DNA from: a phage
Reading direction: 5' to 3' (one strand)
DNA: 64,000 nucleotides
Assembly: GCA_019338205.1 (NCBI GenBank)
Contig: GCA_019338205.1_4761.1
Under the pieces are notes generated by a model. It made no database searches and was not told where the DNA came from. It saw nothing but the letters and a program-made list of their open reading frames with translations. Within the stretch, counting starts at the first letter, position 1, and each line of letters begins with the position of its first letter. Made by a program: the position numbers and the translations under genes. Below, in pieces: positions 5,265 through 54,144 of the stretch.

Positions 5265-5738
5265 ATGTTACTGACTGCTAAGAGTGCTAAAGAGTACAAA
5301 CAAGAACTATTCGAAAAACAGGGGGGCATTTGCCCCCTTTGTCAATTGCCACTTTTTGAGGATATGAGCAAAAACCATCTTGACCACGACCACGATCTAG
5401 ATGGTAAAGGTCAAGGCCGCGTAAGAGGATTGCTTCATTCGTGTTGTAACCGCTTAGAAGGATCGTTGACCGGAGACTTTAAACGGTTTGGTGTTGGTGC
5501 TTTAGGTGCTGACTTCGTTGTTTGGGCTACAAACTATGTTAATTACATCAAAGGAGACTACACCAACAATCATTTACATCCTCAATATGCTGTTGATAAA
5601 GTAAAACGATTTTCACGCTTGACACGCGCGGAGATGGTTGCTATTATGGACGCAGAAGGTTTCGATTACTGCGACGCTGATACACGAGAAGAGATCACGA
5701 AGAAGTATAAGAAACAATTTATACAAAGATTAAGATAG
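5265..5738 (+). CDS. 49: recombination endonuclease VII (gp49)
   Basis: ICPLCQ zinc motif, HLDHDHDL, RGLLHSCCN, FSRLTRAEM closely match my recollection of T4 endo VII. Confidence 0.8.
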   Translation: MLLTAKSAKEYKQELFEKQGGICPLCQLPLFEDMSKNHLDHDHDLDGKGQGRVRGLLHSCCNRLEGSLTGDFKRFGVGALGADFVVWATNYVNYIKGDYTNNHLHPQYAVDKVKRFSRLTRAEMVAIMDAEGFDYCDADTREEITKKYKKQFIQRLR

Positions 5739-5741
5739 TAG

Positions 5742-5770
5742 TTGACAATAAGAAATGGGAGTAGTAAAAT
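5742..5770 (+). promoter_or_regulatory. sigma70-like early promoter with GGGAGTA/TACTCCC inverted repeat across -10
   Basis: TTGACA 5742-5747, 17 bp spacer, TAAAAT 5765-5770. Confidence 0.6.
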
Positions 5771-5801
5771 ACTCCCATCTAATCAAGAAGGAGAATCAAC
5801 A

Positions 5802-6074
5802 ATGCGTAAGATGTTTAAATCCGGTGTGGCCTATGTTTTTAAATCTGAGCAAGCACGTAAAGACTTCCTAGAGGATGACTACGAAGGATTGAAAGATACC
5901 TACGAAGTCATCAAGAATGGGTTTACTGTTCTTAAAGTGTCACCTATTGGTTATGTAAGTGAAATCTCGGTTGATGGGAAAACATATACCGCTAAAGACT
6001 TTGATCCGCGTTGGGAATTTATGCTTCTTCCGTGTGACCGCATTCTGTTTCGTGCTGTTCAATTAGTGAAATGA
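5802..6074 (+). CDS. hypothetical protein, GF(K/T)VL-module family
   Basis: 91 aa; module GFTVLKVSPIGYVSEISVDGKTYTAKDF. Confidence 0.55.
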   Translation: MRKMFKSGVAYVFKSEQARKDFLEDDYEGLKDTYEVIKNGFTVLKVSPIGYVSEISVDGKTYTAKDFDPRWEFMLLPCDRILFRAVQLVK

Positions 6075-6088
6075 TAGAGGATTATATT

Positions 6089-6649
6089 ATGGTACAGAAA
6101 ACATACAAAGTATATTCGGTTAAGTCACCCAATGACGCTGTTTTTGAACGAGGTCGTTACTATACTTTCCGTAGTGCAGAAACAGTCGCAGAATTTATCA
6201 AACGATGTCCGCAACATAATAAGTTCTTGTATGACGTGCTTTGTAACGGCTTTAAAGTTCTCACTGTTGATGCGATGGGGCGTGTGTATCTGGTAGAAAC
6301 TCATGAGTATGAAGGTGCATCTGTTCTGATTGCTGCAAACGAGCGAAAATACTTTAAACGCATCACTAAAAAGCAGTTTGAAGAAATGAAACCAATTAAG
6401 AAAGAAGAATCTCTGGAAGATCTGATTAACTTGTTTGCGAAGTCTTCTTTGGTATCATTGACGCTGGAAGATTTTAGCTTTGATAATCAGCTATACTTTA
6501 AAAATGCCGATGACTTGAAAGATTTTCTGATTGAGAATAAACCTAAGCTAGAAACCTATATCAAAGGTGAGATTAAGCGCATGGAACATCAAGCAAAATA
6601 TAGCGCAGATAAAGTAGCTGAACTGAAAGAGATCCAAAGGTCACTTTAA
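6089..6649 (+). CDS. hypothetical protein, GF(K/T)VL-module family
   Basis: GAGGATTATATTATG; GFKVLTVDAMGRV and ERKYFKRITKK shared with next gene. Confidence 0.6.
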   Translation: MVQKTYKVYSVKSPNDAVFERGRYYTFRSAETVAEFIKRCPQHNKFLYDVLCNGFKVLTVDAMGRVYLVETHEYEGASVLIAANERKYFKRITKKQFEEMKPIKKEESLEDLINLFAKSSLVSLTLEDFSFDNQLYFKNADDLKDFLIENKPKLETYIKGEIKRMEHQAKYSADKVAELKEIQRSL

Positions 6650-6652
6650 CGC

Positions 6653-6681
6653 TTGACATGATGAAACGGGAGTAGTAAGAT
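6653..6681 (+). promoter_or_regulatory. sigma70-like early promoter with GGGAGTA/TACTCCC inverted repeat
   Basis: TTGACA 6653-6658, 17 bp spacer, TAAGAT 6676-6681. Confidence 0.6.
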
Positions 6682-6712
6682 ACTCCCATCTAAACAACGA
6701 GAGGATTATATT

Positions 6713-7891
6713 ATGGCTAAATTCTTTGAAGGGCATTACTACGCATTCCGTGAAGGCGGTAAAGATGAGTTTCTAGACTTTTCTCGCTATTCAATTACTC
6801 TGACCGATACTTCGCGCCGTGGTCATATTCGGGTTGCTGAAATTGTAGAAAAGGGCTTTAAAGTATTAGAAAAAGATGACCACGGTCATGTTGTTACTAT
6901 TGAAGCTGGAGATGTAGTTTATTCCGCTGAGGATATCGTTTATTATTGGGCTACTATGATTATGCACAATGAGCGCAAATACTTTAAACGCATCTCAAAA
7001 GAGGCATACGAAGCGATGAACAAGAAAGAGGATGCAATGCCGACTTACTTTGAAAAAGGTAAATGTTATTCGTTTACCCCGGAAGGTTTGCAAGAATTTA
7101 AGCGATTCTGGGGAGAGCATGATCCAGAGCACAAAGAAGCCATGAAACTTGTTGATTTTGTCGAATATGGCTTTTTAGTTGAAGAAGAATTGCACGGATC
7201 GGCTACCATGATCACCGCGAAAGGTGAAACTGTTAAGGCGGATCGTTTTTGTGACCAATGGAATTGCTTGTTTGACGGTAGCGAATTTGAATACTTCGCG
7301 GAAATCACGCGAGTTGAATATGTCCGTATGCAAGAGCGTGGTCAGAGATTTAAAGTAGGCGAACGATACAAGCCAAATCCACATAATTTGCCTCATTGGT
7401 TTAATACTGAAACCGTATCCAGTCATGTTATTGAAATTATTAAAACGCTGGAACATGGATTTAAGGTAACTAAAGTAGATTCTTTCGGAAGTGTTGACGC
7501 TGTTGAAGTTGATGGTGTAGAATATACTCCTAAATCTTTCGGGCTTTGCTGGTATCACCTGATCAGCAATGATGAACGTTATTACTTTGTTGAACTGCCA
7601 TCTGAACCGGAAGAAGCACTAGAAGATCATGATCATCTGTCTGAACTGGTTAAGCTGTTTGGTGATCTGCCGGATGGTGTAGGGGTGGCGGTAATGGGTG
7701 AAGGTGCTGTTATCCGAAACCTGAAAGACTTTAAAAAGTTCTTGATTGACATGCTGCCTAAACTTGATGATAATCTCGATAAAGATATTCAGAATCGCAA
7801 AGAAATTGTTAAAGATACTGAAAAAGAGATCGAAGAGATTCGAGCAATTCGCCAGAAGGTGAAAGCAGTAAAGAAAAAAGTTAGTTCTTGA
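6713..7891 (+). CDS. hypothetical protein with repeated GF(K/T)V modules
   Basis: 392 aa; internal repeats GFKVLEKDDHGHV, GFKVTKVDSFGSV; ERKYFKRISK motif. Confidence 0.6.
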   Translation: MAKFFEGHYYAFREGGKDEFLDFSRYSITLTDTSRRGHIRVAEIVEKGFKVLEKDDHGHVVTIEAGDVVYSAEDIVYYWATMIMHNERKYFKRISKEAYEAMNKKEDAMPTYFEKGKCYSFTPEGLQEFKRFWGEHDPEHKEAMKLVDFVEYGFLVEEELHGSATMITAKGETVKADRFCDQWNCLFDGSEFEYFAEITRVEYVRMQERGQRFKVGERYKPNPHNLPHWFNTETVSSHVIEIIKTLEHGFKVTKVDSFGSVDAVEVDGVEYTPKSFGLCWYHLISNDERYYFVELPSEPEEALEDHDHLSELVKLFGDLPDGVGVAVMGEGAVIRNLKDFKKFLIDMLPKLDDNLDKDIQNRKEIVKDTEKEIEEIRAIRQKVKAVKKKVSS

Positions 7892-7915
7892 CATGCGAAG
7901 GGAGTATGCTATAAT
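7888..7915 (+). promoter_or_regulatory. sigma70-like early promoter with GGGAGTA/TACTCCC inverted repeat
   Basis: TTGACA 7888-7893, TATAAT 7910-7915. Confidence 0.6.
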
Positions 7916-7945
7916 ACTCCCACTTAACAACGAGAGGATTATATT

Positions 7946-8440
7946 ATGTGGGTACAAGATGTTTGGTATACTGTAACTAAAGAAAACCTTGACGCATTCA
8001 GCGACCAATCTTGCGCTAATAGCTCAATTGCTGATATTCTTGAAGATGTGTTTGGTGGTGTAGATAAAATTCGTTTTAAAGTTGTTGTTAATTCTATGGG
8101 GTGTGTAAAAGACCTATATACCGATGATAAAGACCTTGATCTTAAACTTCATCTTCGTATTGATAATGCAAGTCTAGGTTATTGGTTTGAAGATAACGAG
8201 TATGAATACTTCACACCAGCAATTAAAGTTTTTGCAACTAAACTGGAAGCTGTACTAAATCTCCGACCAATTAATGTTGACGGTTACATTATCAAAAATA
8301 TTCAGGAGTGGGATTCATATCTAGATCAGATTATCCGAAATAGTAAGCAGGAAGCCGCTAATAAGAAGCGACAAGAGATCAAACAACTGAAAGCTGAACT
8401 GGAAGCGGCGGAAAAAGAATTAGCAGAACTGGTAAAATAA
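7946..8440 (+). CDS. hypothetical protein with C-terminal coiled coil
   Basis: GAGGATTATATTATG; 164 aa. Confidence 0.55.
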   Translation: MWVQDVWYTVTKENLDAFSDQSCANSSIADILEDVFGGVDKIRFKVVVNSMGCVKDLYTDDKDLDLKLHLRIDNASLGYWFEDNEYEYFTPAIKVFATKLEAVLNLRPINVDGYIIKNIQEWDSYLDQIIRNSKQEAANKKRQEIKQLKAELEAAEKELAELVK

Positions 8441-8449
8441 CTATCAACG

Positions 8450-8471
8450 AGCGGGAGAAATCCCGCTTTTT
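8450..8471 (+). terminator. intrinsic terminator hairpin AGCGGGAGAAATCCCGCT + T-run
   Basis: stem-loop followed by TTTTT. Confidence 0.55.
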
Positions 8472-8484
8472 CATAGGTGATACA

Positions 8485-10347
8485 ATGGAAAAACTAATCA
8501 AAGACATTACAGAGATCGCAACGGGTAAAGAAAACGAAGTAAGCAAAGAGAACGCGAACAAAGACGCGCGAACATTCCCGACACGTCGAGATCTGATTGC
8601 TGGTGCTGTGTCTAAACAGATTGCTAAAACCGTGTTACCTGAGCACATCTATAAAGCGCATGTAGACGGTGATATTCATTATCATGATATGGATTATGCA
8701 CCCGCTATGCCGTTTACTAACTGCTGTCTTGTTAATCTAAAAGACATGTTAGAGAATGGTTTTAAATTGGGTAGCGCACAAATCGAAAGTCCGAAATCAA
8801 TCGGCGTTGCTTGTGCTGTAACCGCTCAAATTATCGCACAGGTGGCAAGTCATCAATATGGCGGGACCACAATTGCAAATATCGATCAGGTGTTAGCGCC
8901 GTATGTTGAGAAAACATATCATAAACACCTTGCTGATGCCGAAACCTACGGAATCAAAGCTAATACTCTCTATGCACAAGAGAAGACAGAAAAAGAAACG
9001 CTAGACGGATATCAGGCGTTGGAATATGAGATCAACACTTTGTTCTCTACCAACGGTCAAACACCTTTTGTGACTTTAACCTTTGGTATGGGTACTAGCT
9101 GGGAAGAAAAACTGATTCAGAAAGCGATCTTGAAAGTTAGAATTAAAGGTTTAGGTAAAGATGGTATAACTCCGGTGTTTCCTAAGCTGGTGATGTTCTT
9201 AGAAGAAGGATTAAACCTTAAACCGGAAGATCCGAACTACGACATTAAGCAACTTGCATTGGAATGTTCTAGTAAGCGTCTTTACCCTGATTATATCTCT
9301 GCGAAGAATAACCGTAGTATCACCGGATCTAGTGTTCCGGTTAGCCCGATGGGTTGTCGTAGCTTCCTGGGTGTGTGGCATAATGAGAAAGACGAGGAAG
9401 TATTAGACGGACGTAATAACTTAGGTGTTGTGACTCTGAATCTTCCGCGTATTGCCCTTATTGCCTCGCGTCGTGCTGGTAAAGCGTCTGTAATGCGCAG
9501 AATTGAGCTATTCGAACAAGAGCTAGCTAATCGTATGCCTATTTGCTTTGATGCGCTCATGAGTCGCGTAGACGCTTTAAAAGGGGCTAAAGCCAATGTT
9601 GCTCCGGTGCTGTATACAGAAGGTGCATTTTTCCGTATTCATCAAAACGATGAAATTTTGGAAGTGCTGAAAGATGGTCGCGCTAGTATCTCTCTTGGAT
9701 ATATTGGTTTACATGAGGTATTGAGCGTCCTGTTTGGTGTTCATCCGTTTGATTCGGAAGATGCGCAGCGATACGGTAAACATATTCTTAAGATCTTGCG
9801 TCATTATACTGAAAAATGGAAGGATGAAACCGGACTTGGGTTTAGTCTTTACGGTACGCCAGCCGAGAGCCTTTGCTATCGATTTAATCGACTGGATCGA
9901 GAGCAATTTGGTATTGTTAAGGGTGCTACCGATAAAGACTGGTACACTAACTCATTCCACCTTGACGTAGACCGGAAAGTCACACCATTTGAGAAAATCG
10001 ACTTTGAGAAAGATTATCACTGGCTGGCGTCCGGTGGCATGATCTCTTATGTTGAGTTCCCAGACATGAAAAACAACCTGAAAGGTCTTGAAACTGTAGT
10101 AGACTATGCAATGGATAAATTGCACTACTTCGGTGTTAATACTCCTTCTGATGTATGTCATGTATGCGGATCTAATAAGGAAATGAGAGCGACCGAGTCT
10201 GGTTTTGTTTGCCCTGATTGCGGCAATGACAATCTGGAAAAGATGAATGTTATCCGTCGCGTTAGTGGATATCTTGGATCTGTTGATCTGCGTCCATTTA
10301 ACCACGGGAAACATTCCGAGATGGTAAACCGCGTTAAGCACATGTAA
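8485..10347 (+). CDS. nrdD: anaerobic ribonucleoside-triphosphate reductase (NrdD)
   Basis: 620 aa; C-terminal Cys cluster CHVCG..CPDCG and glycyl-radical motif RVSGYLG; uninterrupted (no intron evident). Confidence 0.85.
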   Translation: MEKLIKDITEIATGKENEVSKENANKDARTFPTRRDLIAGAVSKQIAKTVLPEHIYKAHVDGDIHYHDMDYAPAMPFTNCCLVNLKDMLENGFKLGSAQIESPKSIGVACAVTAQIIAQVASHQYGGTTIANIDQVLAPYVEKTYHKHLADAETYGIKANTLYAQEKTEKETLDGYQALEYEINTLFSTNGQTPFVTLTFGMGTSWEEKLIQKAILKVRIKGLGKDGITPVFPKLVMFLEEGLNLKPEDPNYDIKQLALECSSKRLYPDYISAKNNRSITGSSVPVSPMGCRSFLGVWHNEKDEEVLDGRNNLGVVTLNLPRIALIASRRAGKASVMRRIELFEQELANRMPICFDALMSRVDALKGAKANVAPVLYTEGAFFRIHQNDEILEVLKDGRASISLGYIGLHEVLSVLFGVHPFDSEDAQRYGKHILKILRHYTEKWKDETGLGFSLYGTPAESLCYRFNRLDREQFGIVKGATDKDWYTNSFHLDVDRKVTPFEKIDFEKDYHWLASGGMISYVEFPDMKNNLKGLETVVDYAMDKLHYFGVNTPSDVCHVCGSNKEMRATESGFVCPDCGNDNLEKMNVIRRVSGYLGSVDLRPFNHGKHSEMVNRVKHM

Positions 10348-10390: not shown

Positions 10391-10418
10391 TTGACAACCT
10401 GATTAGCTAATGTATAAT
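10391..10418 (+). promoter_or_regulatory. sigma70-like early promoter
   Basis: TTGACA 10391-10396, TATAAT 10413-10418. Confidence 0.55.
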
Positions 10419-10447
10419 GCTCACATCGAAAACAACGAGAGGACAAC

Positions 10448-10990
10448 ATGATGATGATGTTTTGTGTACTGAGCAAAGAAGTTAAACTTCGTAAACTGGA
10501 AATTGGCGATGGTGTTGTTGTTAAAATGCACGCTAGCACATTGGCTAGTTTTAATTTAAAGGAAAGTTTTTTTATTAGAGGAACGGTGGTTAATATCTGC
10601 TGGAGTCAATGCGAAGGAATCCGTAGCTTTTGCGTAATTGACGATGATAATAACCTGTATGTGATTCGCTATCATAATAATTCTGTATTGGTCTATACCG
10701 ACAATTCACGAGAATTATATACTCTTGAATTTGTTAAGCGTACTGATTGCGACCTATTTGTTCGTGCTTATGAAGAAGATGGCTGTTTTGCGACTGAAAC
10801 AGAAACAAATGAATATGTTCCTATGGAAGTAGGGGCAGAAATTAAACACAAGATCACGGATCGTATTTTTAAGGTTGTGGCGGTTGCTCATACTCAATTT
10901 GTAGCGCAAGCGCCGGATGAAGAATTTATTATCTACAATATTGGTAATGCAAGTTCTCATTTTCATAATGTACTATATCGCGACCTTTGA
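10448..10990 (+). CDS. hypothetical protein
   Basis: 180 aa ORF with GAGAGGA RBS. Confidence 0.55.
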   Translation: MMMMFCVLSKEVKLRKLEIGDGVVVKMHASTLASFNLKESFFIRGTVVNICWSQCEGIRSFCVIDDDNNLYVIRYHNNSVLVYTDNSRELYTLEFVKRTDCDLFVRAYEEDGCFATETETNEYVPMEVGAEIKHKITDRIFKVVAVAHTQFVAQAPDEEFIIYNIGNASSHFHNVLYRDL

Positions 10991-12265: not shown

Positions 12266-12793
12266 ATGAAATGGGAAGTTGGTAAAACTTACAAGATTGA
12301 ATGCGAAGCGTCGAAAGCCGAACTAACTAAATTTTCGTCGTCTATTAACAGATGTATTGTTGACTTGTTGGCTGGTCGCCCGTTTAGGGTAGAAGACCTT
12401 GACGATGATGGTGATGTTAGAGAAATTACTGTTATTGGTAGTAATTTCGACTCTATGACGTTAAAAGAATCCCCTATTGGCTGTTCCGGCGTGTGGTTTT
12501 GGTCGGGTGAGCGTCGTTTCTTTACCGAAGTTACTATTGAACCTAAGATTCCAGATTCGGAAGAAAAAGAAGAAGACCTAACTTTAGAACGCCTGGGTCT
12601 GCTTATGGAAGCCTACGACATTCAGTTGATCGATAAGATGGGGTTACATAATAGCATTGCCAAAATTACTACCCTAGAAGGTATTAAGAGCGTACTGGAT
12701 GGTATGCCTAGCCGGATCGGTGCTATCCGAGAATACAAACAAACGCGCGACCGTATGATCCAATTAGAATCACGTATCAAAAATGAGAGATGA
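12266..12793 (+). CDS. hypothetical protein, MKWEVGKTY family paralog 1
   Basis: N-terminal MKWEVGKTYKIE; C-terminal helical tail. Confidence 0.55.
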   Translation: MKWEVGKTYKIECEASKAELTKFSSSINRCIVDLLAGRPFRVEDLDDDGDVREITVIGSNFDSMTLKESPIGCSGVWFWSGERRFFTEVTIEPKIPDSEEKEEDLTLERLGLLMEAYDIQLIDKMGLHNSIAKITTLEGIKSVLDGMPSRIGAIREYKQTRDRMIQLESRIKNER

Positions 12794-12797
12794 TATT

Positions 12798-13262
12798 ATG
12801 AAATGGGAAGTTGGTAAAACCTATGCGTGGAAAGATGTAAAAGATGCAAACCAATTTTTTAAATGGTATGATGTTGATTATTTGAAATATCTGAGATTAC
12901 CGTTTAAAGTTGCGTCGGTTGATGCGAAAAAAGGATACGTGCGGTCTGTATATCTTCATGATGGAACTTATATGAGTTCAACCGATGTAGGTCTATCTTG
13001 TTGGTTTCTGGATCATGACCGTAGCAGATTTGAAGAAATTATTATTCCAGAAGAATCTAAATTAATTGATCTTCTCAAGTTGGCGATGGATAATTATAAA
13101 ATCCGCTTTGAATGCAAATCACATGCGGCTATCGGTGCTAACGCATTGCGTCATATCTCCAGTTTTGAAGAGTTGAAAGATTTTCTTGACAAAATGCCGG
13201 AAAGAGTGCAAGCTATACAGGAAGCAGAGAAAGCATTAAACGAACTTGATAAAATCGGTTAA
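12798..13262 (+). CDS. hypothetical protein, MKWEVGKTY family paralog 2
   Basis: N-terminal MKWEVGKTYAWKD. Confidence 0.55.
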   Translation: MKWEVGKTYAWKDVKDANQFFKWYDVDYLKYLRLPFKVASVDAKKGYVRSVYLHDGTYMSSTDVGLSCWFLDHDRSRFEEIIIPEESKLIDLLKLAMDNYKIRFECKSHAAIGANALRHISSFEELKDFLDKMPERVQAIQEAEKALNELDKIG

Positions 13263-13274
13263 GGGGAATATATT

Positions 13275-14099
13275 ATGAAATGGGAAATTGGTAAAACTTA
13301 CACCTGGAAAGACGAAAACGCTAAAACTGAGTTTATTACTAACGGAGAAGGTGTTCTTTCTCCACTTAACAGCGATATTAGTGCAGCTATTGGTGACAAG
13401 CCATTTACCATCATCGAGATCGAGGGTAACGGTTGGATTGATGCAATAGAGCTAGACGGTGTTTATCATACGGCGAAAACTGCTACAGGAAAAGACATTT
13501 GGACTGCAACATATTTCTTTAGTCCATTCGATAGAAAATTCTTTCGTGAAGTTGAAGAAGTTCCCCAGAAATGGGAAGTTGGTAAAACTTATACTTGGAA
13601 AGATGTGAATGCTATGACAGACTTCTGCCATTATGCTGAAAACGCATCTAACCTTAATTATGTTATTGCACGAGCAATAAATTATAGACCTTTTACTGTT
13701 AAAAATGTTCGTCCATGTGGGCAAATTGATGTAATTGAAATTGATGGTAAAGACCATACTCTAATGAGCGCAACCGAAGATAGAGACCATAAAGGAACTA
13801 GCTGGTTTATTGATTCTGATAGAAAATTCTTTCGTGAAGTAGAAGAATTGGAAGTTATAACCACTGATTCTAAGATCGTTGGACAGTTGAAACGTCTGTT
13901 TAGTAGTCGTTACGGCCTGACAATGGTTAAATTTGGCGAAGCAAATGAAGGTAAAACCTTTGAACGTTTCGATGATTTCATTGCGGCACTTGACAAGATG
14001 GATGAAATCATGCAAGATCGCCAGAAGATTAAAGACCTTCAAGAAGACATTAAACGTCGTGAAGTTGAATTTTTGATTGGTAAAGAGCGAGGTTGGTAA
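13275..14099 (+). CDS. hypothetical protein, tandem double MKWE(I/V)GKTY domain
   Basis: MKWEIGKTYTWKD at N-terminus and QKWEVGKTYTWKD internally; repeated DRKFFREVEE. Confidence 0.55.
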   Translation: MKWEIGKTYTWKDENAKTEFITNGEGVLSPLNSDISAAIGDKPFTIIEIEGNGWIDAIELDGVYHTAKTATGKDIWTATYFFSPFDRKFFREVEEVPQKWEVGKTYTWKDVNAMTDFCHYAENASNLNYVIARAINYRPFTVKNVRPCGQIDVIEIDGKDHTLMSATEDRDHKGTSWFIDSDRKFFREVEELEVITTDSKIVGQLKRLFSSRYGLTMVKFGEANEGKTFERFDDFIAALDKMDEIMQDRQKIKDLQEDIKRREVEFLIGKERGW

Positions 14100-14100
14100 T

Positions 14101-14583
14101 ATGTTTGTTGCTGGCGTGACCTATCAGTGGAAAGATAAGAAAACGAGAGAAGATTTTGCAAACTTTAGCGTTGCAAATGATGCAATAGCAGAGTTTATAG
14201 GCGACCGTCCATTTAAAGTTATCGCATTTGATCACCATGCATCGGATGTTGATTATGTTTCTGCGATTGAAATTGATGGCACGGTATACACCTGCTGCAA
14301 TGTTGATGATGTACGGGAATACGCGCACAACTGGTTTTTGCAATCAGAAGAACGTCATTTTAAAGTGGTATCGGCAGAACTGACCACTGATGCAATGTTG
14401 GAACAATTTTTCAACAACTACGAAGTTTCTGTACGTCGATACGGTGAAGAGGAAGTATTTAAAATTGATGACTATAATCAGTTTAAACGAGTATTCGCCA
14501 CTAAGATCCAACGTGATATTGAACGCGAGAAGCGCATTAAGGAACTGGAAGAAGAACTAGAAAGATTAAAGGCTGAGAAATGA
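14101..14583 (+). CDS. hypothetical protein, diverged member of same family
   Basis: VTYQWKDKKTREDF..GDRPFKV..AIEIDGTVYT; coiled-coil C-terminus. Confidence 0.5.
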   Translation: MFVAGVTYQWKDKKTREDFANFSVANDAIAEFIGDRPFKVIAFDHHASDVDYVSAIEIDGTVYTCCNVDDVREYAHNWFLQSEERHFKVVSAELTTDAMLEQFFNNYEVSVRRYGEEEVFKIDDYNQFKRVFATKIQRDIEREKRIKELEEELERLKAEK

Positions 14584-31692: not shown

Positions 31693-32328
31693 ATGATCGC
31701 TAATGCTTTACCGCCAAAATGGATCGTAAGTCGCTTTTATACTCTCAAGGAAGGTAACGCACCTGATGGTCGTCCGATCCGAGATCTGTTTCTGGAGATG
31801 ACTACAGCCGAAGCACAGTTTTATAATGATCTGACAGACGATAAGCCATTTCTCGTAAATTCGGTGGACCTTGATGGCAATGTCACATCAATCATCACAC
31901 ATGGTGGGGGAGTGAAAAATATTACTTCTCTGCGTGATCACGGTTGGGAAATTGCTTGTGTATTTCCTGCGGATGTACGCGGATTCTTTGATGAGGTATC
32001 TGATATTAAAGTAAATGCACTGGAACCATATGACGAGATCCCACCACTGAAAGAAGAAAAAGAGTTGACACCGGAAGATGTAGATAGTACACTACACCCC
32101 GACCTATTTAAGAAGATTAGCGGTTTATGGACTGTTACCCTGTATCCAACCGCATTAGGTCTAGAATTGGGTATGCCAACTTATTCTGATATTGATAACT
32201 GGAATAAGAGCATTGATAAAGATGTTGAAAAACAGCGAAATAATGCTAAAATGCAACTTAAAGAGAAACGCAAAGATCTTGAACGACAACTGAAAGAAAC
32301 AAAACATTTGCTTTCTACATTCGCTTGA
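31693..32328 (+). CDS. hypothetical protein
   Basis: 211 aa ORF. Confidence 0.5.
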   Translation: MIANALPPKWIVSRFYTLKEGNAPDGRPIRDLFLEMTTAEAQFYNDLTDDKPFLVNSVDLDGNVTSIITHGGGVKNITSLRDHGWEIACVFPADVRGFFDEVSDIKVNALEPYDEIPPLKEEKELTPEDVDSTLHPDLFKKISGLWTVTLYPTALGLELGMPTYSDIDNWNKSIDKDVEKQRNNAKMQLKEKRKDLERQLKETKHLLSTFA

Positions 32329-49232: not shown

Positions 49233-49261
49233 TTGACGTAAAGAAACGGGAGTAGTAATAT
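49233..49261 (+). promoter_or_regulatory. sigma70-like promoter with GGGAGTA/TACTCCC inverted repeat
   Basis: TTGACG 49233-49238, 17 bp spacer, TAATAT 49256-49261. Confidence 0.55.
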
Positions 49262-49293
49262 ACTCCCATACCAAACGAAAGAAGGAGAATCAC

Positions 49294-49739: not shown

Positions 49740-49768
49740 TTGACACCGGATTAAGGGAGTAGTAAGAT
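49740..49768 (+). promoter_or_regulatory. sigma70-like promoter with GGGAGTA/TACTCCC inverted repeat
   Basis: TTGACA 49740-49745, 17 bp spacer, TAAGAT 49763-49768. Confidence 0.6.
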
Positions 49769-49802
49769 ACTCCCATCAAGACAAAACACTGAGGAATATA
49801 TT

Positions 49803-51807: not shown

Positions 51808-52140
51808 ATGTTTAACTATGACAAATATGAATCATGGAAAGCGACCGAATTGAAAGAGGCAGCGCGGTTAATCACACCGCGTCTTTATCCGGTGCTGTTT
51901 AGCGCCGATAAAGTAACAAGGGAAGTCAACGAGGCGCTATCGGTTTTAGGCTATCTGATCGATAAAGTAGAGAAAACATCGGTATTCACAAATAGCGTAG
52001 AATATACACGGTATCGAGTGTTTTTAGATTCCTTGCTCGTTGTCATTAAGGCACTAAATGATCATAACTACACCATGAACATGACGAAAATAATCGACGA
52101 AGCAAGAATTATGACAGAGAATATTTTCGGTAAATTTTGA
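51808..52140 (+). CDS. hypothetical protein, paralog of 52249..52578
   Basis: C-terminal ..ARIMTENIFGKF vs ..ARKLAENVYGKF. Confidence 0.5.
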   Translation: MFNYDKYESWKATELKEAARLITPRLYPVLFSADKVTREVNEALSVLGYLIDKVEKTSVFTNSVEYTRYRVFLDSLLVVIKALNDHNYTMNMTKIIDEARIMTENIFGKF

Positions 52141-52142
52141 TT

Positions 52143-52265
52143 ATGAAAGATGATGAATCATTGAAAATTGCACTGGTTATGTTATTACACTGTATAGAAT
52201 TAGCAAACCACGAAAAAATGTTGAAACAACAGCGTGAAATTATGAGAGGTGATTATGATCGAGTT
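52143..52265 (+). CDS. hypothetical small protein
   Basis: 40 aa ORF filling intergenic gap; weak. Confidence 0.2.
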
Positions 52266-52578
52266 TGAAATTGACAACTTTCACGAAAAAGCAGAAGACA
52301 TAACCAAAATTTTGATTAGTCGAGGTGCATATAATACTAAAGATATTATAAAAGAAGTTAATGTAGCGATGGACGCGATCCGAAATGAATTTAAACATAT
52401 TTCAGAGATTGGAGAAAATGGTCATCTTGAAGATGTTGAGCTGGTAGCACTGCGACGCTATTACTTCTTTGTTGATTGCATCATTGATCTAGCTAAAAAT
52501 TATAGTCATTACATGAAAGATATTGTAAAAGATGCACGTAAGCTGGCAGAGAATGTTTACGGGAAGTTTCCAGAATGA
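52249..52578 (+). CDS. hypothetical protein, paralog of 51808..52140
   Basis: 109 aa; GAGAGGTGATTATG. Confidence 0.5.
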   Translation: MIMIEFEIDNFHEKAEDITKILISRGAYNTKDIIKEVNVAMDAIRNEFKHISEIGENGHLEDVELVALRRYYFFVDCIIDLAKNYSHYMKDIVKDARKLAENVYGKFPE

Positions 52579-52823
52579 AATTAGAACAAGCGATTGTATA
52601 CTTTGAGATGGGCTATGATATTGCTCGTGTAGAGTGGGAAGATGGTGATTTTGTCCGATTGATTGATCTTCCAGAAACAGCTATTGCACTGGTCAAAGTA
52701 GAAAACGGCATACAACGCAATTACGCGTTTTCTGACGAAGACAAACAAGCCGATGACTGGTACGCTACATGTTTTCATCATACAGCGTCAAAATGCGATT
52801 CAGGCGCGTCTATGCGTCAATAA
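52575..52823 (+). CDS. hypothetical protein
   Basis: 82 aa ORF, last plus-strand gene before convergent terminator. Confidence 0.45.
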   Translation: MKLEQAIVYFEMGYDIARVEWEDGDFVRLIDLPETAIALVKVENGIQRNYAFSDEDKQADDWYATCFHHTASKCDSGASMRQ

Positions 52824-52858
52824 AAAAGAAGGGGAGGCCGAAAGGCTTCCCCTTTAAG
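52822..52858. terminator. bidirectional intrinsic terminator between convergent early (plus) and late (minus) units
   Basis: AAAAAAGAAGGGGAGGCCGAAAGGCTTCCCCTTTAAGTT: GC stem flanked by A-run and T-run. Confidence 0.75.
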
Positions 52859-53515
52859 TTATCTAATCCTTCCGAGGATTCTGGCAGATTGATTGCAAAG
52901 AGTATCTAAATTCTCAATGTCAATATCCGGTTTATTCTTCCATGCAATGGAGATACTACCAGAATAGACATTGTCGAGATTGAATATAGGACAAGAATAC
53001 ATAACCCCTATATCGATACTCTCTAATTTCTTTTCTCTTGATGGAATATACTGGAAATCTTTATCGGTAAAATAGGATTTACCTAAAAGATGCCTACGAT
53101 ATTCTTCACTCGTTTTATTGATAGGGAATCCGCCTAAATTCTTTTCGTCGATCGTATGAGGTAGCTTTCCTTCATATGCCACCAAATCAACAAAATAGTT
53201 TAGGTTTTTCGGACGAAAACTAAAAACAGCAGAAAAATCGGCATCAGCCGACACATGAACTATCTGTAACTGCTCCTGTGCTGCATTATCAAAATTGCGG
53301 TCTTTCTCTACCTGGAGAACGTGAGCATAAGTCTCATAACGAGTCTCTTTATAAAGCGCAAATAACTCGTTTTTACTATAAACGACAAATGCTAATATAG
53401 ACAACACGACGGCAGCAAAAACACGAAGTACGAGCAACTCCGTGCTTTTAGTTGTGAAAATAGCGCGCAGGACATTTGAGATAGCAAAGTCTTTCCCTTT
53501 TTCAGAAACTTGCAT
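52859..53515 (-). CDS. t: holin T
   Basis: 218 aa; QLQIVHVSADADFSAVFSFRPKNLNYFVDLVAYEGKLP, YSCPIFNLDNVYSG, ARILGR match T4 holin t as recalled. Confidence 0.85.
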   Translation of the reverse strand: MQVSEKGKDFAISNVLRAIFTTKSTELLVLRVFAAVVLSILAFVVYSKNELFALYKETRYETYAHVLQVEKDRNFDNAAQEQLQIVHVSADADFSAVFSFRPKNLNYFVDLVAYEGKLPHTIDEKNLGGFPINKTSEEYRRHLLGKSYFTDKDFQYIPSREKKLESIDIGVMYSCPIFNLDNVYSGSISIAWKNKPDIDIENLDTLCNQSARILGRIR

Positions 53516-53548
53516 ATAATGCCCTAAGATAACTATGACAGTGTACTC

Positions 53549-53788
53549 TTATTTAGGTACTTGACTATCACTAGGTTTATCTTGCTCGTTGCTATCTTCT
53601 GACTGATCTTTATTAAACTCCTTATAAAGTTCTTCCACAAAACGATCATCAATTGGCGTATTGGTATAAGCCGCAAGACGACGAGCGCAATAGAAGAAAA
53701 TTTTAGTGAGCATCTTTTCACTAATTAACTTTGACAATAGTTTCATTCCGAAATTAGACAAAGCACCAATGACGATATTATAGACCAT
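53549..53788 (-). CDS. hypothetical small protein upstream of holin
   Basis: 79 aa; AAGGAG RBS; amphipathic N-terminus, acidic C-terminus. Confidence 0.5.
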   Translation of the reverse strand: MVYNIVIGALSNFGMKLLSKLISEKMLTKIFFYCARRLAAYTNTPIDDRFVEELYKEFNKDQSEDSNEQDKPSDSQVPK

Positions 53789-53841
53789 AGCCGTTTCTCC
53801 TTAGTAGTTCCCTTCCCTGGGAGTTTTCCTTAATTCTTTTT

Positions 53842-54144
53842 TTAACGGTTGCTCAAGCGTCTATAACGAAGATGGGAAATACCCCTGTTTGTAGTTACCG
53901 TGATCGTTACTCCCTGCGGCACAATACAAGAATGGATCTGTCCCCAATCATGACCCTTATGACTTCCAGACACACAGAAGCCATGCAAAAGCAATTCTGA
54001 GTCACCACCGCCACCACCAGAAGAACTAGCACCAAATGAAACCGTACCGAAAGCGTCGGCTGTCCAACCGTTAGGAATATCAAACCATCCCTGATTCGCT
54101 TTACCGGCTTTATTGTCTAAAACTCCATACACCCAATATCCCAT
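53842..54144 (-). CDS. glycine-rich small protein, tandem paralog C
   Basis: MGYWV..GWFDIPNGW..GGGGG; AGGAG RBS; TAATG coupling to upstream paralog. Confidence 0.6.
   Translation of the reverse strand: MGYWVYGVLDNKAGKANQGWFDIPNGWTADAFGTVSFGASSSGGGGGDSELLLHGFCVSGSHKGHDWGQIHSCIVPQGVTITVTTNRGISHLRYRRLSNR

Follow-up and report, generated by a model that had tools for sequence, protein, structure and literature searches.

In T4-like phages, GoF and Frd.2, along with MotB.1, constitute an abundant and widespread protein family, which was defined together with its barrel by Kim et al. (2025). The mutant GoF(D25Y) was found to stabilise gene 41 mRNA post-transcriptionally and to lengthen the half-life of a gene 41 5'UTR reporter RNA; wild-type GoF and MotB.1 have little effect on that reporter (Kim et al. 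2025). GoF pull-downs recovered GoF only, and frd.2 scored as a fitness gene in a CRISPRi-ART screen. A second relevant system is that of the promoter-early stem-loop (PeSL) cassettes (Arbiol et al. 2010). In RB49 and Phi1, PeSLs sit upstream of ORFans in hyperplastic regions and combine a sigma-70 consensus with a G/C-rich stem-loop over the -10 box, followed by a conserved leader and a Shine-Dalgarno sequence. Both promoter and terminator activity have been shown experimentally for some of them (Arbiol et al. 2010), and ORFans of this kind are known to be shuffled through PeSLs and to occur as mini-circles.

The whole stretch of DNA analysed here, a window of 64,000 nt, derives from a Krischvirus, that is, an RB49/Phi1-like T4-type coliphage. 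Profile comparisons assign its genes 5802, 6089, 6713 and 7946 (named after their first nucleotide) to the already described GoF/Frd.2/MotB.1 family of early proteins, and the family is not new. Our additions are modest: the family has expanded in this one genus to nine members in three places, some of them carry two or three barrels in tandem ahead of a long C-terminal helix, and module number differs among close relatives. Otherwise the locus is ordinary, with a known family, known promoters and a known hyperplastic region.

Organisation of the island between gene 49 and nrdD

In T4, gene 49 (endonuclease VII) directly adjoins nrdD, whereas genes 5802, 6089, 6713 and 7946 form an island inserted between them here. 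The island is kept in all 59 Krischvirus records, and 57 records match it at 93-97.6% identity, each covering the whole query. An earlier note, made from the letters of this DNA, had named four genes in 5802-8440. All four exist as plus-strand open reading frames, and the proposed starts agree with the Shine-Dalgarno sequences and with the lengths of the PHROG profiles.

5802..6074, + strand: gene 5802, 90 aa, a single GoF-type barrel module without C-terminal tail; equivalent to Phi1 ORF060, phrog_16115
6089..6649, + strand: gene 6089, 186 aa, one module (about aa 17-100), then a linker and a small element; the long C-terminal helix spans aa 140-185
6713..7891, + strand: gene 6713, 392 aa, three tandem modules and a tail (aa 305-392)
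6713-7012, 7037-7333 and 7337-7624, + strand: the three modules of gene 6713 (aa 1-100, 109-207 and 209-304)
7946..8440, + strand: gene 7946, 164 aa, one divergent module (aa 1-94) and a tail; phrog_15067

Gene 6713 is annotated as frd.2 in Phi1, RB49 and JSE, and its RefSeq name is "goF mRNA metabolism modulator". Its orthologs were found only in the 59 Krischvirus records, all with at least 90% identity.

Each of the four genes had been credited with its own stem-loop promoter. This holds for genes 5802, 6713 and 7946, the stem-loop promoters being PeSL cassettes of the published type, and fails for gene 6089, upstream of which no cassette occurs.

5742..5778, + strand: PeSL cassette 1, -35 box TTGACA (5742-5747), 17-nt spacer, -10 box TAAAAT (5765-5770); fold z = -3.3
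5755-5778, + strand: stem-loop of cassette 1, AUGGGAGUA/UACUCCCAU, enclosing the -10 box
6653..6687, + strand: PeSL cassette 2, -35 box TTGACA (6653-6658), -10 box TAAGAT (6676-6681), stem-loop GGGAGUA/UACUCCC (6668-6687); z = -3.1
7888..7921, + strand: PeSL cassette 3, perfect TTGACA, 16-nt spacer, TATAAT (7910-7915); z = -3.8
7900-7921, + strand: stem-loop of cassette 3, GGGAGUAU/AUACUCCC, enclosing TATAAT
8449..8472, + strand: intrinsic-terminator-like hairpin, GAGCGGGA gaaa UCCCGCUU followed by a T run; -17 kcal/mol, z = -5.0

The three cassettes match 10-12 of 12 sigma-70 promoter positions, their hairpins reach z = -3.1 to -3.8, and the cassette pattern was not found in shuffled sequence. 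From this arrangement, cassette 1 is predicted to drive genes 5802 and 6089, cassette 2 gene 6713, and cassette 3 gene 7946. Gene 6089, which lacks its own promoter, begins only 14 nt beyond the stop codon of gene 5802 and must be co-transcribed with the latter; it does have the common GAGGATTATATTATG ribosome-binding region. Cassette 2 probably also attenuates read-through from upstream, and the hairpin at 8449..8472 is the predicted end of the island before nrdD. An Rfam scan of the whole window returned nothing at gathering scores.

A repeated module of the GoF/Frd.2/MotB.1 family

A module of about 60 aa shared by the four genes had been described from the letters alone. The module is real, and its length is about 90 aa: it extends from an N-terminal F/W-x-x-G-x-x-Y strand to a (D/E)R-x-(F/Y)-F-x-x-(V/I) strand, with Y10, F49 and F91 invariant in a 14-sequence alignment. 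The earlier count of at least three copies in the 392-aa protein is likewise upheld, as three copies emerge from leave-one-out HMMs and hhalign as well as from an independent PHROG profile and the AlphaFold2 (AF2) model. An HMM built without the protein's own modules recognised three domains (independent E-values of 9.5e-8, 7.6e-4 and 3.9e-11), and hhalign among the three segments gave P = 1.6e-5, 4.5e-7 and 1.9e-3, compared with 0.33 for a module against the tail. The profile phrog_622 matches the protein in three stretches, and the AF2 model shows an identical pattern of strands and helices three times over, with moderate confidence (pLDDT 68). The repeats, for which the earlier note had made support by profile methods decisive, are thus significant in HMM, hhalign and PHROG tests. 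A beta-rich module repeated within and between genes is borne out by these profiles and by a high-confidence barrel model; pairwise BLAST similarities between the paralogs are weak.

In the AF2 model of gene 6089, the module is a five-stranded beta-barrel with pLDDT >90 (strands at residues 24-27, 55-60, 66-70, 77-81 and 89-92), followed by a linker and a helical tail. The module is thus modelled with high confidence as a small SH3/FeoA-like barrel whose first two strands are separated by a helical insert, and structural superposition of the module model agreed with an SH3-like small beta-barrel of FeoA-like topology. When N-terminal helix, five bent strands, Sm/Hfq neighbours and ring were considered together, the module did not qualify as an Sm/LSm (Hfq-like) fold. 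The AF2 predictions do display the architecture of the GoF/Frd.2/MotB.1 family, namely an N-terminal bent five-stranded antiparallel beta-sheet or barrel, a linker and a variable C-terminal domain. Among viral models, a Foldseek search retrieved a GoF protein along with many that are uncharacterised, chiefly from T4-like phages, and profile searches of PDB sequences found no relatives of the module.

A C-terminal coiled coil had been attributed to all four genes. Gene 5802, however, has no C-terminal extension, and the tails of genes 6089 and 6713 are predicted in monomer models as single long helices; in the AF2 model of gene 6713, the final helix covers aa 337-391, about 55 residues. The tail of gene 7946 ends in the K/E-rich helix QEAANKKRQEIKQLKAELEAAEKELAELVK. 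In a crude heptad test, seven of its eight a/d positions were hydrophobic, a value equalled in 4 of 300 shuffles; the test was convincing for gene 7946 only.

Sequence profiles equate the module with the domain at the N-terminus of T4 GoF and Frd.2, with MotB.1 as a more remote relative. The profile phrog_622, which holds both T4 GoF (E = 5e-38) and Frd.2 (E = 4e-46), matches genes 5802 (1.3e-6), 6089 (2.1e-5), 6713 (1.1e-20) and 7946 (0.01), the last being the weakest member. A module profile built from the window only, searched against 1.84 billion proteins, recovered a GoF representative 65% identical to T4 GoF (E = 1.7e-6) and a Frd.2 relative (E = 2.8e-4), and the module family was found across many T4-like genera. 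Five very long proteins among the representative matches (Big_2, ankyrin, YadA and other repeat proteins) aligned over short stretches only and were discarded as spurious. In the opposite direction, an HMM built from T4 GoF and Frd.2 only, itself weak, ranked family members in exactly the top 8 places among 634 six-frame ORFs of the window. A comparison of seven of the proteins with Pfam and NCBIfam yielded sub-threshold noise only (RecT, LYR, HALZ and others).

The suggestion that these genes form one superfamily with the MKWEVGKTY genes beyond nrdD is confirmed by reciprocal profile matches and by PHROG cross-matches. A seed from the 5802-8440 cluster finds three MKWEVGKTY genes (E = 1.6e-11 to 2.8e-4), and a seed from the latter finds all four genes of the former (E = 1.1e-8 to 2.4e-3), gene 7946 being matched at E = 0.0024 with its whole cluster excluded from the seed. 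HMMs of the leave-one-out and cross-cluster kind reach significance whichever cluster supplies the seed, phrog_622 matches all seven genes of both clusters, and phrog_5347 matches the 392-aa protein at E = 1.3e-14. Two further members, genes 14101 and 31693, were absent from the list of the earlier note. Outside the seed, gene 14101 was detected at E = 4e-14 (phrog_5347 E = 1e-54) and gene 31693 at E = 6e-9.

12266-12793, + strand: gene 12266, second cluster after nrdG, one module and a tail of the same kind
12798-13262, + strand: gene 12798, second cluster after nrdG, one module and a tail of the same kind
13275-14099, + strand: gene 13275, second cluster after nrdG, two modules and a tail of the same kind
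14101..14583, + strand: gene 14101, 160 aa, one module and a tail; equivalent to Phi1 ORF048
31693..32328, + strand: gene 31693, 211 aa, one module and a tail, just downstream of gene 41; equivalent to Phi1 ORF021

The window therefore holds nine genes with 12-13 modules: four genes at 5802-8440, four beyond nrdG and one beside gene 41. A scan of the Phi1 genome found the same nine genes and no others. Eight of the nine continue beyond their one to three modules with an acidic linker, then a small element that is poorly modelled, and finally a long C-terminal helix rich in K and E. Tail homology between the clusters is weak by small HMMs (gene 6713 only, E = 0.0014) and is backed instead by PHROG alignments spanning both module and tail. 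Genes 5802, 7946, 12266, 12798, 13275, 14101 and 31693, which are "hypothetical" in the Phi1 RefSeq record, hence share a family with two genes labelled "goF mRNA metabolism modulator", a label that overstates what is known. Gene 31693, which lies between genes 41 and 61, was also considered as a homolog of T4 gp61.2, the ToxN inhibitor TifA; this was rejected on a BLASTP E-value of 6.7 and membership in different PHROGs.

Module number, recombination and selection

The 392-aa protein and its neighbour had been reported to share a near-identical 24-bp DNA stretch. We confirmed a single mismatch between 6341-6364 and 6971-6994, with 0 such matches expected in shuffles.

6341..6364, + strand: copy 1 of the 24-bp stretch (family D5), in gene 6089; encodes (N)ERKYFKRI, which is the module's last strand
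6971..6994, + strand: copy 2, in gene 6713, where its module 1 ends

Both genes encode NERKYFKRI, with identical codons at seven of nine positions against 4.3 expected from codon usage (P = 0.067). As codon identity, given the shared peptide, reaches only P of about 0.07, the DNA identity mostly reflects peptide conservation and codon bias, and the patch was not retained as a mark of recent gene conversion. A DRKFFREVEE patch in gene 13275 was somewhat stronger in the same codon test (P = 0.006).

Module number varies among relatives of the two-module gene 13275: P0009 has only module 2, P0010 and P0011 have only module 1, and the junctions of all three fall in DNA repeats at module edges. Short conserved DNA patches at these edges probably allow modules to be gained or lost by homologous recombination, which would explain both the multi-module proteins and the one-module variants of related phages. 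About 13 of some 87 family representatives have at least two modules. A tblastn search with the metagenomic three-module relative P0248 gave no match in the phage collection. The genes are under purifying selection, with dN/dS versus Phi1 of 0.04-0.36 across genes (0.04 for gene 5802). Gene 14101 is only 68% identical to its Phi1 counterpart, compared with 95-98% for its neighbours.

Possible roles and comparison with known systems

The best explanation of the whole, which we regard as reasonably probable, is that these are early, non-enzymatic, multivalent binding proteins that act in mRNA fate via a protein partner. Judging from the sigma-70 promoters within stem-loops, they would be expressed early; they are further envisaged as abundant binders of the host-takeover phase. 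Each barrel may represent one ligand-binding unit, and the tandem modules, together with a probable pairing of the C-terminal helices, would make the modelled proteins multivalent. mRNA fate (decay, termination or translation) is the likeliest field by analogy with GoF(D25Y), the only functional handle on the family. A protein of the mRNA machinery is favoured over direct binding of RNA because the majority of modules are acidic and because GoF has no effect on RNA in its wild-type form, a preference drawn from net charge and this negative result only.

Direct RNA binding would be expected if the modules were LSm/Hfq-like RNA chaperones, as Kim et al. (2025) suggested for GoF, which bind phage or host RNA and block its decay, the tandems mimicking a multi-subunit Sm ring. 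The longer half-life of the reporter RNA with GoF(D25Y) and the structural proximity of Hfq to GoF's N-terminal domain (Kim et al. 2025) are consistent with this, as are the slightly basic modules of genes 5802 and 6089 and a K or R at the position equivalent to G84 (suppressor G84R) in 6 of the 12 window modules. However, wild-type GoF and MotB.1 barely affect the reporter, and 10 of the 12 modules have a pI <7 (nine of those <=5.3). Sm proteins typically begin with a helix, which is missing from the model; its helical insert comes after strand 1. With AlphaFold3, Kim et al. (2025) obtained neither a ring nor a dimer of good confidence. The position equivalent to D25 varies freely across the family, being T, P, T, D, R, Q, F, W, G, N, F and M in the window modules. 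We thus consider this reading unlikely. The same positions bear on a bolder proposal, namely that the wild-type multivalent proteins of Krischvirus natively act as the GoF D25Y and G84R mutants do, by shielding phage mRNAs or blocking a host RNA-decay or termination factor. It is put forward on account of the K/R residues in half of the window modules and of three aromatic residues at the D25-equivalent, and is very improbable in our view; if true, it would give the GoF/Frd.2/MotB.1 family its first wild-type function. Modules with an aromatic residue at the D25-equivalent or K/R at the G84-equivalent occur in genes 12266, 12798, 13275 and 14101. A related idea, that D25Y and G84R are returns to the family consensus, was set aside as a weak lead, the D25-equivalent being highly variable and the G84-equivalent being K/R in only about one third of the representatives.

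A role outside mRNA metabolism would follow if these were fast-turnover counter-defence or host-range genes, with every barrel acting on its own host target, an immunity or stress protein, as decoy or inhibitor, and with an arms race behind the expansion. Their location in hyperplastic, PeSL-rich regions holding non-essential ORFans would suit such a role, as would the lineage-specific expansion to nine genes with none at the T4 goF or frd.2 loci, the mosaic divergence of gene 14101, the polymorphic module number, and the structural resemblance of the module to protein-binding barrels of Tudor and SH3 type, for example CarD and the C-terminal domain of UvrD. Set against this, dN/dS is well below 1, with no whole-gene sign of positive selection, the island is present in every Krischvirus record rather than patchy, and no member is tied to any defence system in the literature found, where "GoF" is drowned by gain-of-function papers; the idea is accordingly quite unlikely. 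Finally, the repeats could be non-functional, with the genes as selfish ORFan cargo that recombination at PeSLs moves around, and the module as a product of composition or chance. The documented shuffling and mini-circles and the weak BLAST similarity between paralogs point that way, but the profile tests are significant in both whole-database and leave-one-out form, the module folds confidently in the model, selection is purifying and the family is kept across many T4-like genera, so that this explanation is scarcely credible.

The diversity of the Krischvirus family provides experimenters with natural variants, whose phenotypes may be stronger or more tractable than that of T4 GoF. Among these variants, multivalency, charge (some acidic, some basic) and the residues found at both GoF suppressor positions all vary.

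With regard to the known systems, T4 GoF (ComC-alpha, 141 aa, "mRNA metabolism modulator") has the same N-terminal barrel of about 90 aa as the window modules and scores 45 bits over residues 2-91 with the window-only profile. GoF and the window genes also have in common an acidic linker and a short C-terminal element, and both are presumed early accessory genes. In contrast to the tailed window proteins, GoF has one module and no long C-terminal helix; its identity to the window modules is only about 15-25%, and its suppressor positions D25 and G84 are not conserved in them. T4 goF is flanked by 39.2 and cef; Krischvirus has no gene at this locus, its 39.2 adjoining dexA. T4 Frd.2 (128 aa; Pfam PF03197, FRD2) belongs to the same superfamily as the window genes, but scores only 18 bits with the window-only profile; conversely, no window protein matched Pfam FRD2 (gathering threshold 29 bits) at E <=1, whereas T4 Frd.2 scores 133 bits. 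The 392-aa "frd.2" has three modules and lies beside nrdD, whereas T4 frd.2 lies between frd and gene 32, and it is thus no positional ortholog. T4 MotB.1, which Kim et al. (2025) assign to this structural family, branches off furthest, with weak profile links (phrog_622 E = 0.0013, module HMM E = 0.008) and an alignment covering only the first half of the module. Among other small barrels, the FeoA and DtxR-IdeR C-terminal SH3-like domains, together with KOW, Tudor and CarD, are among the closest known systems to the module. The cassettes of the window, for their part, do not differ from the PeSLs of RB49 and Phi1 and are ordinary members of that class.

The GoF/Frd.2-type module in both gene clusters

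All four open reading frames of the island (genes 5802, 6089, 6713 and 7946, named by start coordinate; 6713 encodes the 392-aa protein) were recovered as the earlier note had given them. Its proposal of a module common to the four was clearly borne out by profile methods, pairwise BLAST between paralogs being weak, and only the length had to be revised, to ~90 aa rather than ~60 aa. An HMM built solely from T4 GoF and T4 Frd.2 placed eight genes at the top of the 634 six-frame ORFs of the window, namely the four island genes, the three MKWEVGKTY genes (12266, 12798 and the two-module 13275) and 14101. The HMM of the 12 window modules also found two genes absent from its seeds, 14101-14583 (E = 4e-14) and 31693-32328 (E = 6e-9).

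The proposed triple repeat of the 392-aa protein persisted when its own modules were excluded from the HMM (three domains; independent E = 9.5e-8, 7.6e-4 and 3.9e-11). Profile-profile comparison of its three segments (hhalign, ortholog profiles) gave P = 1.6e-5, 4.5e-7 and 1.9e-3, with P = 0.33 for the control of module versus tail, and the independent PHROG profile phrog_622 matched the protein in three stretches. Either cluster, used as HMM seed, recovered the other, and the profile of the MKWEVGKTY family, phrog_5347, matched the 392-aa protein (E = 1.3e-14); the earlier observation and its interpretation as one superfamily are correct. In contrast, the C-terminal tail ascribed to all four genes is not general, as gene 5802 has no C-terminal extension. 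The reported 24-bp near-identical stretch is present (6341-6364 and 6971-6994) and codes for the module's final strand, NERKYFKRI, with seven of nine codons identical, marginally above the codon-bias expectation for an identical peptide (P = 0.067).

The AlphaFold2 model of the gene 6089 product (35-sequence alignment; mean pLDDT 80, above 90 over the module) comprises strand 1, two helices, strands 2-4, a short helix and strand 5, followed by a helix, a low-confidence stretch and a 46-residue terminal helix. The element order of the module is repeated three times in the model of the 392-aa protein (pLDDT 68), which ends in a 55-residue helix. Invariant residues of the module alignment are Y10, F49 and F91. 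Profile searches of PDB sequences returned no solved structure related by sequence. Foldseek against viral models matched a GoF protein and many uncharacterised proteins, several of which (225-311 aa) are likely multi-module; a few came from other large myoviruses and most from T4-like phages of Aeromonas, Acinetobacter, Serratia, Citrobacter, Proteus, Pectobacterium, Cronobacter, Erwinia, Edwardsiella and Morganella.

With regard to family identity, phrog_622 includes T4 GoF (141 aa, E = 5e-38) and T4 Frd.2 (128 aa, E = 4e-46). The window-only 12-module profile found 92 matches (E <= 1e-3) among 1.84 billion representative proteins, including a GoF representative with 65% identity to the T4 protein (E = 1.7e-6) and an Frd.2 relative (E = 2.8e-4). 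Five were rejected as spurious, being very long repeat proteins matched over short stretches only (two Big_2, one ankyrin, one YadA and one without a recognised repeat family). At least two modules occur in ~13 of the ~87 family representatives. The N-terminal domain of the family is a five-stranded barrel whose closest solved structures are FeoA/IdeR-type SH3-like domains (Kim et al. 2025). RefSeq labels Phi1 ORF059 and ORF058 'goF mRNA metabolism modulator', and 'frd.2' is the name given to the 392-aa gene in RB49, Phi1 and JSE.

Island, promoters and genomic distribution

The region 5700-8500 is matched at full length by 57 phage records (93-97.6% identity), all of the RB49/Phi1 group (Krischvirus, Straboviridae). 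The annotated Phi1 genome reads dam, nrdC, 49 (endonuclease VII), ORF060, ORF059, 'frd.2' (ORF058), ORF057, nrdD, two ORFs, nrdG, ORF051-048 and nrdH, ORF060-057 being the counterparts of the four island genes. Since gene 49 directly adjoins nrdD in T4, the island is lineage-specific. Each gene had been credited with its own stem-loop promoter, which holds for 5802, 6713 and 7946; gene 6089 has none because it lies just 14 nt from the stop of 5802.

Regulatory features of the island
5742-5778, + strand: PeSL (promoter-early stem-loop) cassette 1, TTGACA, -10 TAAAAT
6653-6687, + strand: PeSL cassette 2, TTGACA, -10 TAAGAT
7888-7921, + strand: PeSL cassette 3, TTGACA, -10 TATAAT
8449-8472, + strand: terminator-like hairpin closing the island

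These are the PeSL cassettes known from RB49 and Phi1, with a spacer of 16-17 nt and the -10 hexamer embedded in a GGGAGUA/UACUCCC hairpin. Downstream of cassettes 2 and 3 lies AACAACGAGAGGATTATATTATG, a conserved stretch of leader plus ribosome-binding region (shared DNA patch family D3); the leader of cassette 1 differs, and gene 6089 has just the GAGGATTATATTATG part. Promoter and terminator activities were demonstrated experimentally for other PeSLs of RB49/Phi1, and PeSLs mark ORFan-rich hyperplastic regions in both phages (Arbiol et al. 2010). Further PeSL-type cassettes with the GGGAGTA...TACTCCC hairpin lie at 49233-49267 and 49740-49774, and a degenerate copy with the common AACAACGAGAGGA leader at ~10413-10453, upstream of gene 10448. 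At ~52000-54000 the GC skew changes sign (~+0.15 to ~-0.2), which fits a passage from + strand early/middle genes to genes of the other strand (compare the Phi1 map near gene 34/rnh).

Run over the whole Phi1 genome, the module HMM returned the nine family genes and no others. No member was found at the T4 goF position, where 39.2 adjoins dexA, or at the T4 frd.2 position between frd and gene 32, which holds an ORF239 and an endonuclease (NC_009821 5129-5972 and 138433-141875; loci L005 and L007). The 'frd.2' of RB49/Phi1 is therefore not the positional ortholog of T4 frd.2, a fitness gene in a CRISPRi-ART screen. The first 50 kb of T4 yielded GoF and, weakly, MotB.1. The 392-aa architecture occurred only in 59 Krischvirus records of the phage collection (>=90% identity). 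The lone member 31693-32328 (Phi1 ORF021; 'Dc2' in phage ECD7) is unrelated to T4 gp61.2. It lies immediately downstream of gene 41, whose mRNA T4 GoF(D25Y) affects, which may be coincidence. A small tandem paralog pair, 793-990 and 1009-1266 (possibly also 549-803 and 1263-1604), starting MKIEIID(D/R)(G/A)G(F/Y)(S/T)FM..VKLPIIVEGR, was unrelated to the GoF-type module in the HMM scan.

Variation in module number

Divergence from Phi1 is mosaic (dS 0.05-1.19). The 14101-14583 protein is 68% identical to its Phi1 counterpart (dS ~1.2) and its neighbours 95-98%, which looks like allelic replacement or a mosaic patch within the cluster. Module edges carry DNA repeats: ATGAAATGGGAAGTTGGTAAAAC at the first strand (four copies), GATAGAAAATTCTTTCGTGAAGT at the last strand (two copies) and the NERKYFKRI patch.

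Edge repeats of gene 13275 (13275-14099), sites of one-module-allele junctions
13270-13338 / 13561-13629, + strand: edge-repeat pair
13530-13559 / 13818-13847, + strand: edge-repeat pair

Among the relatives of gene 13275 compared (P0009-P0012, P0014, P0019, P0033, P0080 and P0083), P0009 retains only module 2, with the MKWEIGKTYTWKD start kept, and P0010 and P0011 only module 1; the one-module forms P0010, P0014 and P0080 come from contigs of 46-170 kb. Given that the one-module junctions fall exactly within the module-edge repeats, recombination at short homologies probably alters module number.

Possible function and relation to known systems

Architecture, family membership, predicted fold, purifying selection and promoter anatomy are established here. 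Beyond these, we infer that the island genes would be expressed early, each barrel serving as a non-enzymatic binding unit, with multivalency provided by tandem modules and a tail helix that probably self-pairs. By analogy with GoF(D25Y), the proteins might act on mRNA fate. GoF/Frd.2/MotB.1 members are early and non-essential, GoF being abundant (Kim et al. 2025). The GoF suppressor positions D25 and G84 fall on variable sites of the 12 window modules. The D25 equivalent is F, W and F in 12266, 12798 and 14101, respectively, and six of the 12 modules carry K or R at the G84 equivalent; 'mutant-like' residue types are already present in some natural members.

Hfq is also a structural neighbour of the N-terminal domain (Kim et al. 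2025), and a direct LSm-like RNA chaperone has been weighed, which we consider unlikely. Of the 12 modules, ten are acidic, and only mutant GoF(D25Y) stabilised the leader RNA of gene 41, an effect absent with wild-type GoF and MotB.1 (Kim et al. 2025); the acidity and the inactivity of wild-type GoF point weakly to a protein partner rather than to direct binding of RNA. A family of counter-defence decoys seems somewhat less probable still than the chaperone. That the genes are non-functional cargo is highly improbable and contradicted by the data; all members are under purifying selection relative to Phi1 (dN/dS 0.04-0.36).

Both the family and its promoters have been described before; what is new is how far the family has expanded in Krischvirus, the architecture of tandem modules with a long helix, two extra members (14101 and 31693) and the polymorphism in module number. 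Krischvirus carries nine genes with 13 modules, whereas three single-module genes have been described in T4 (Kim et al. 2025).
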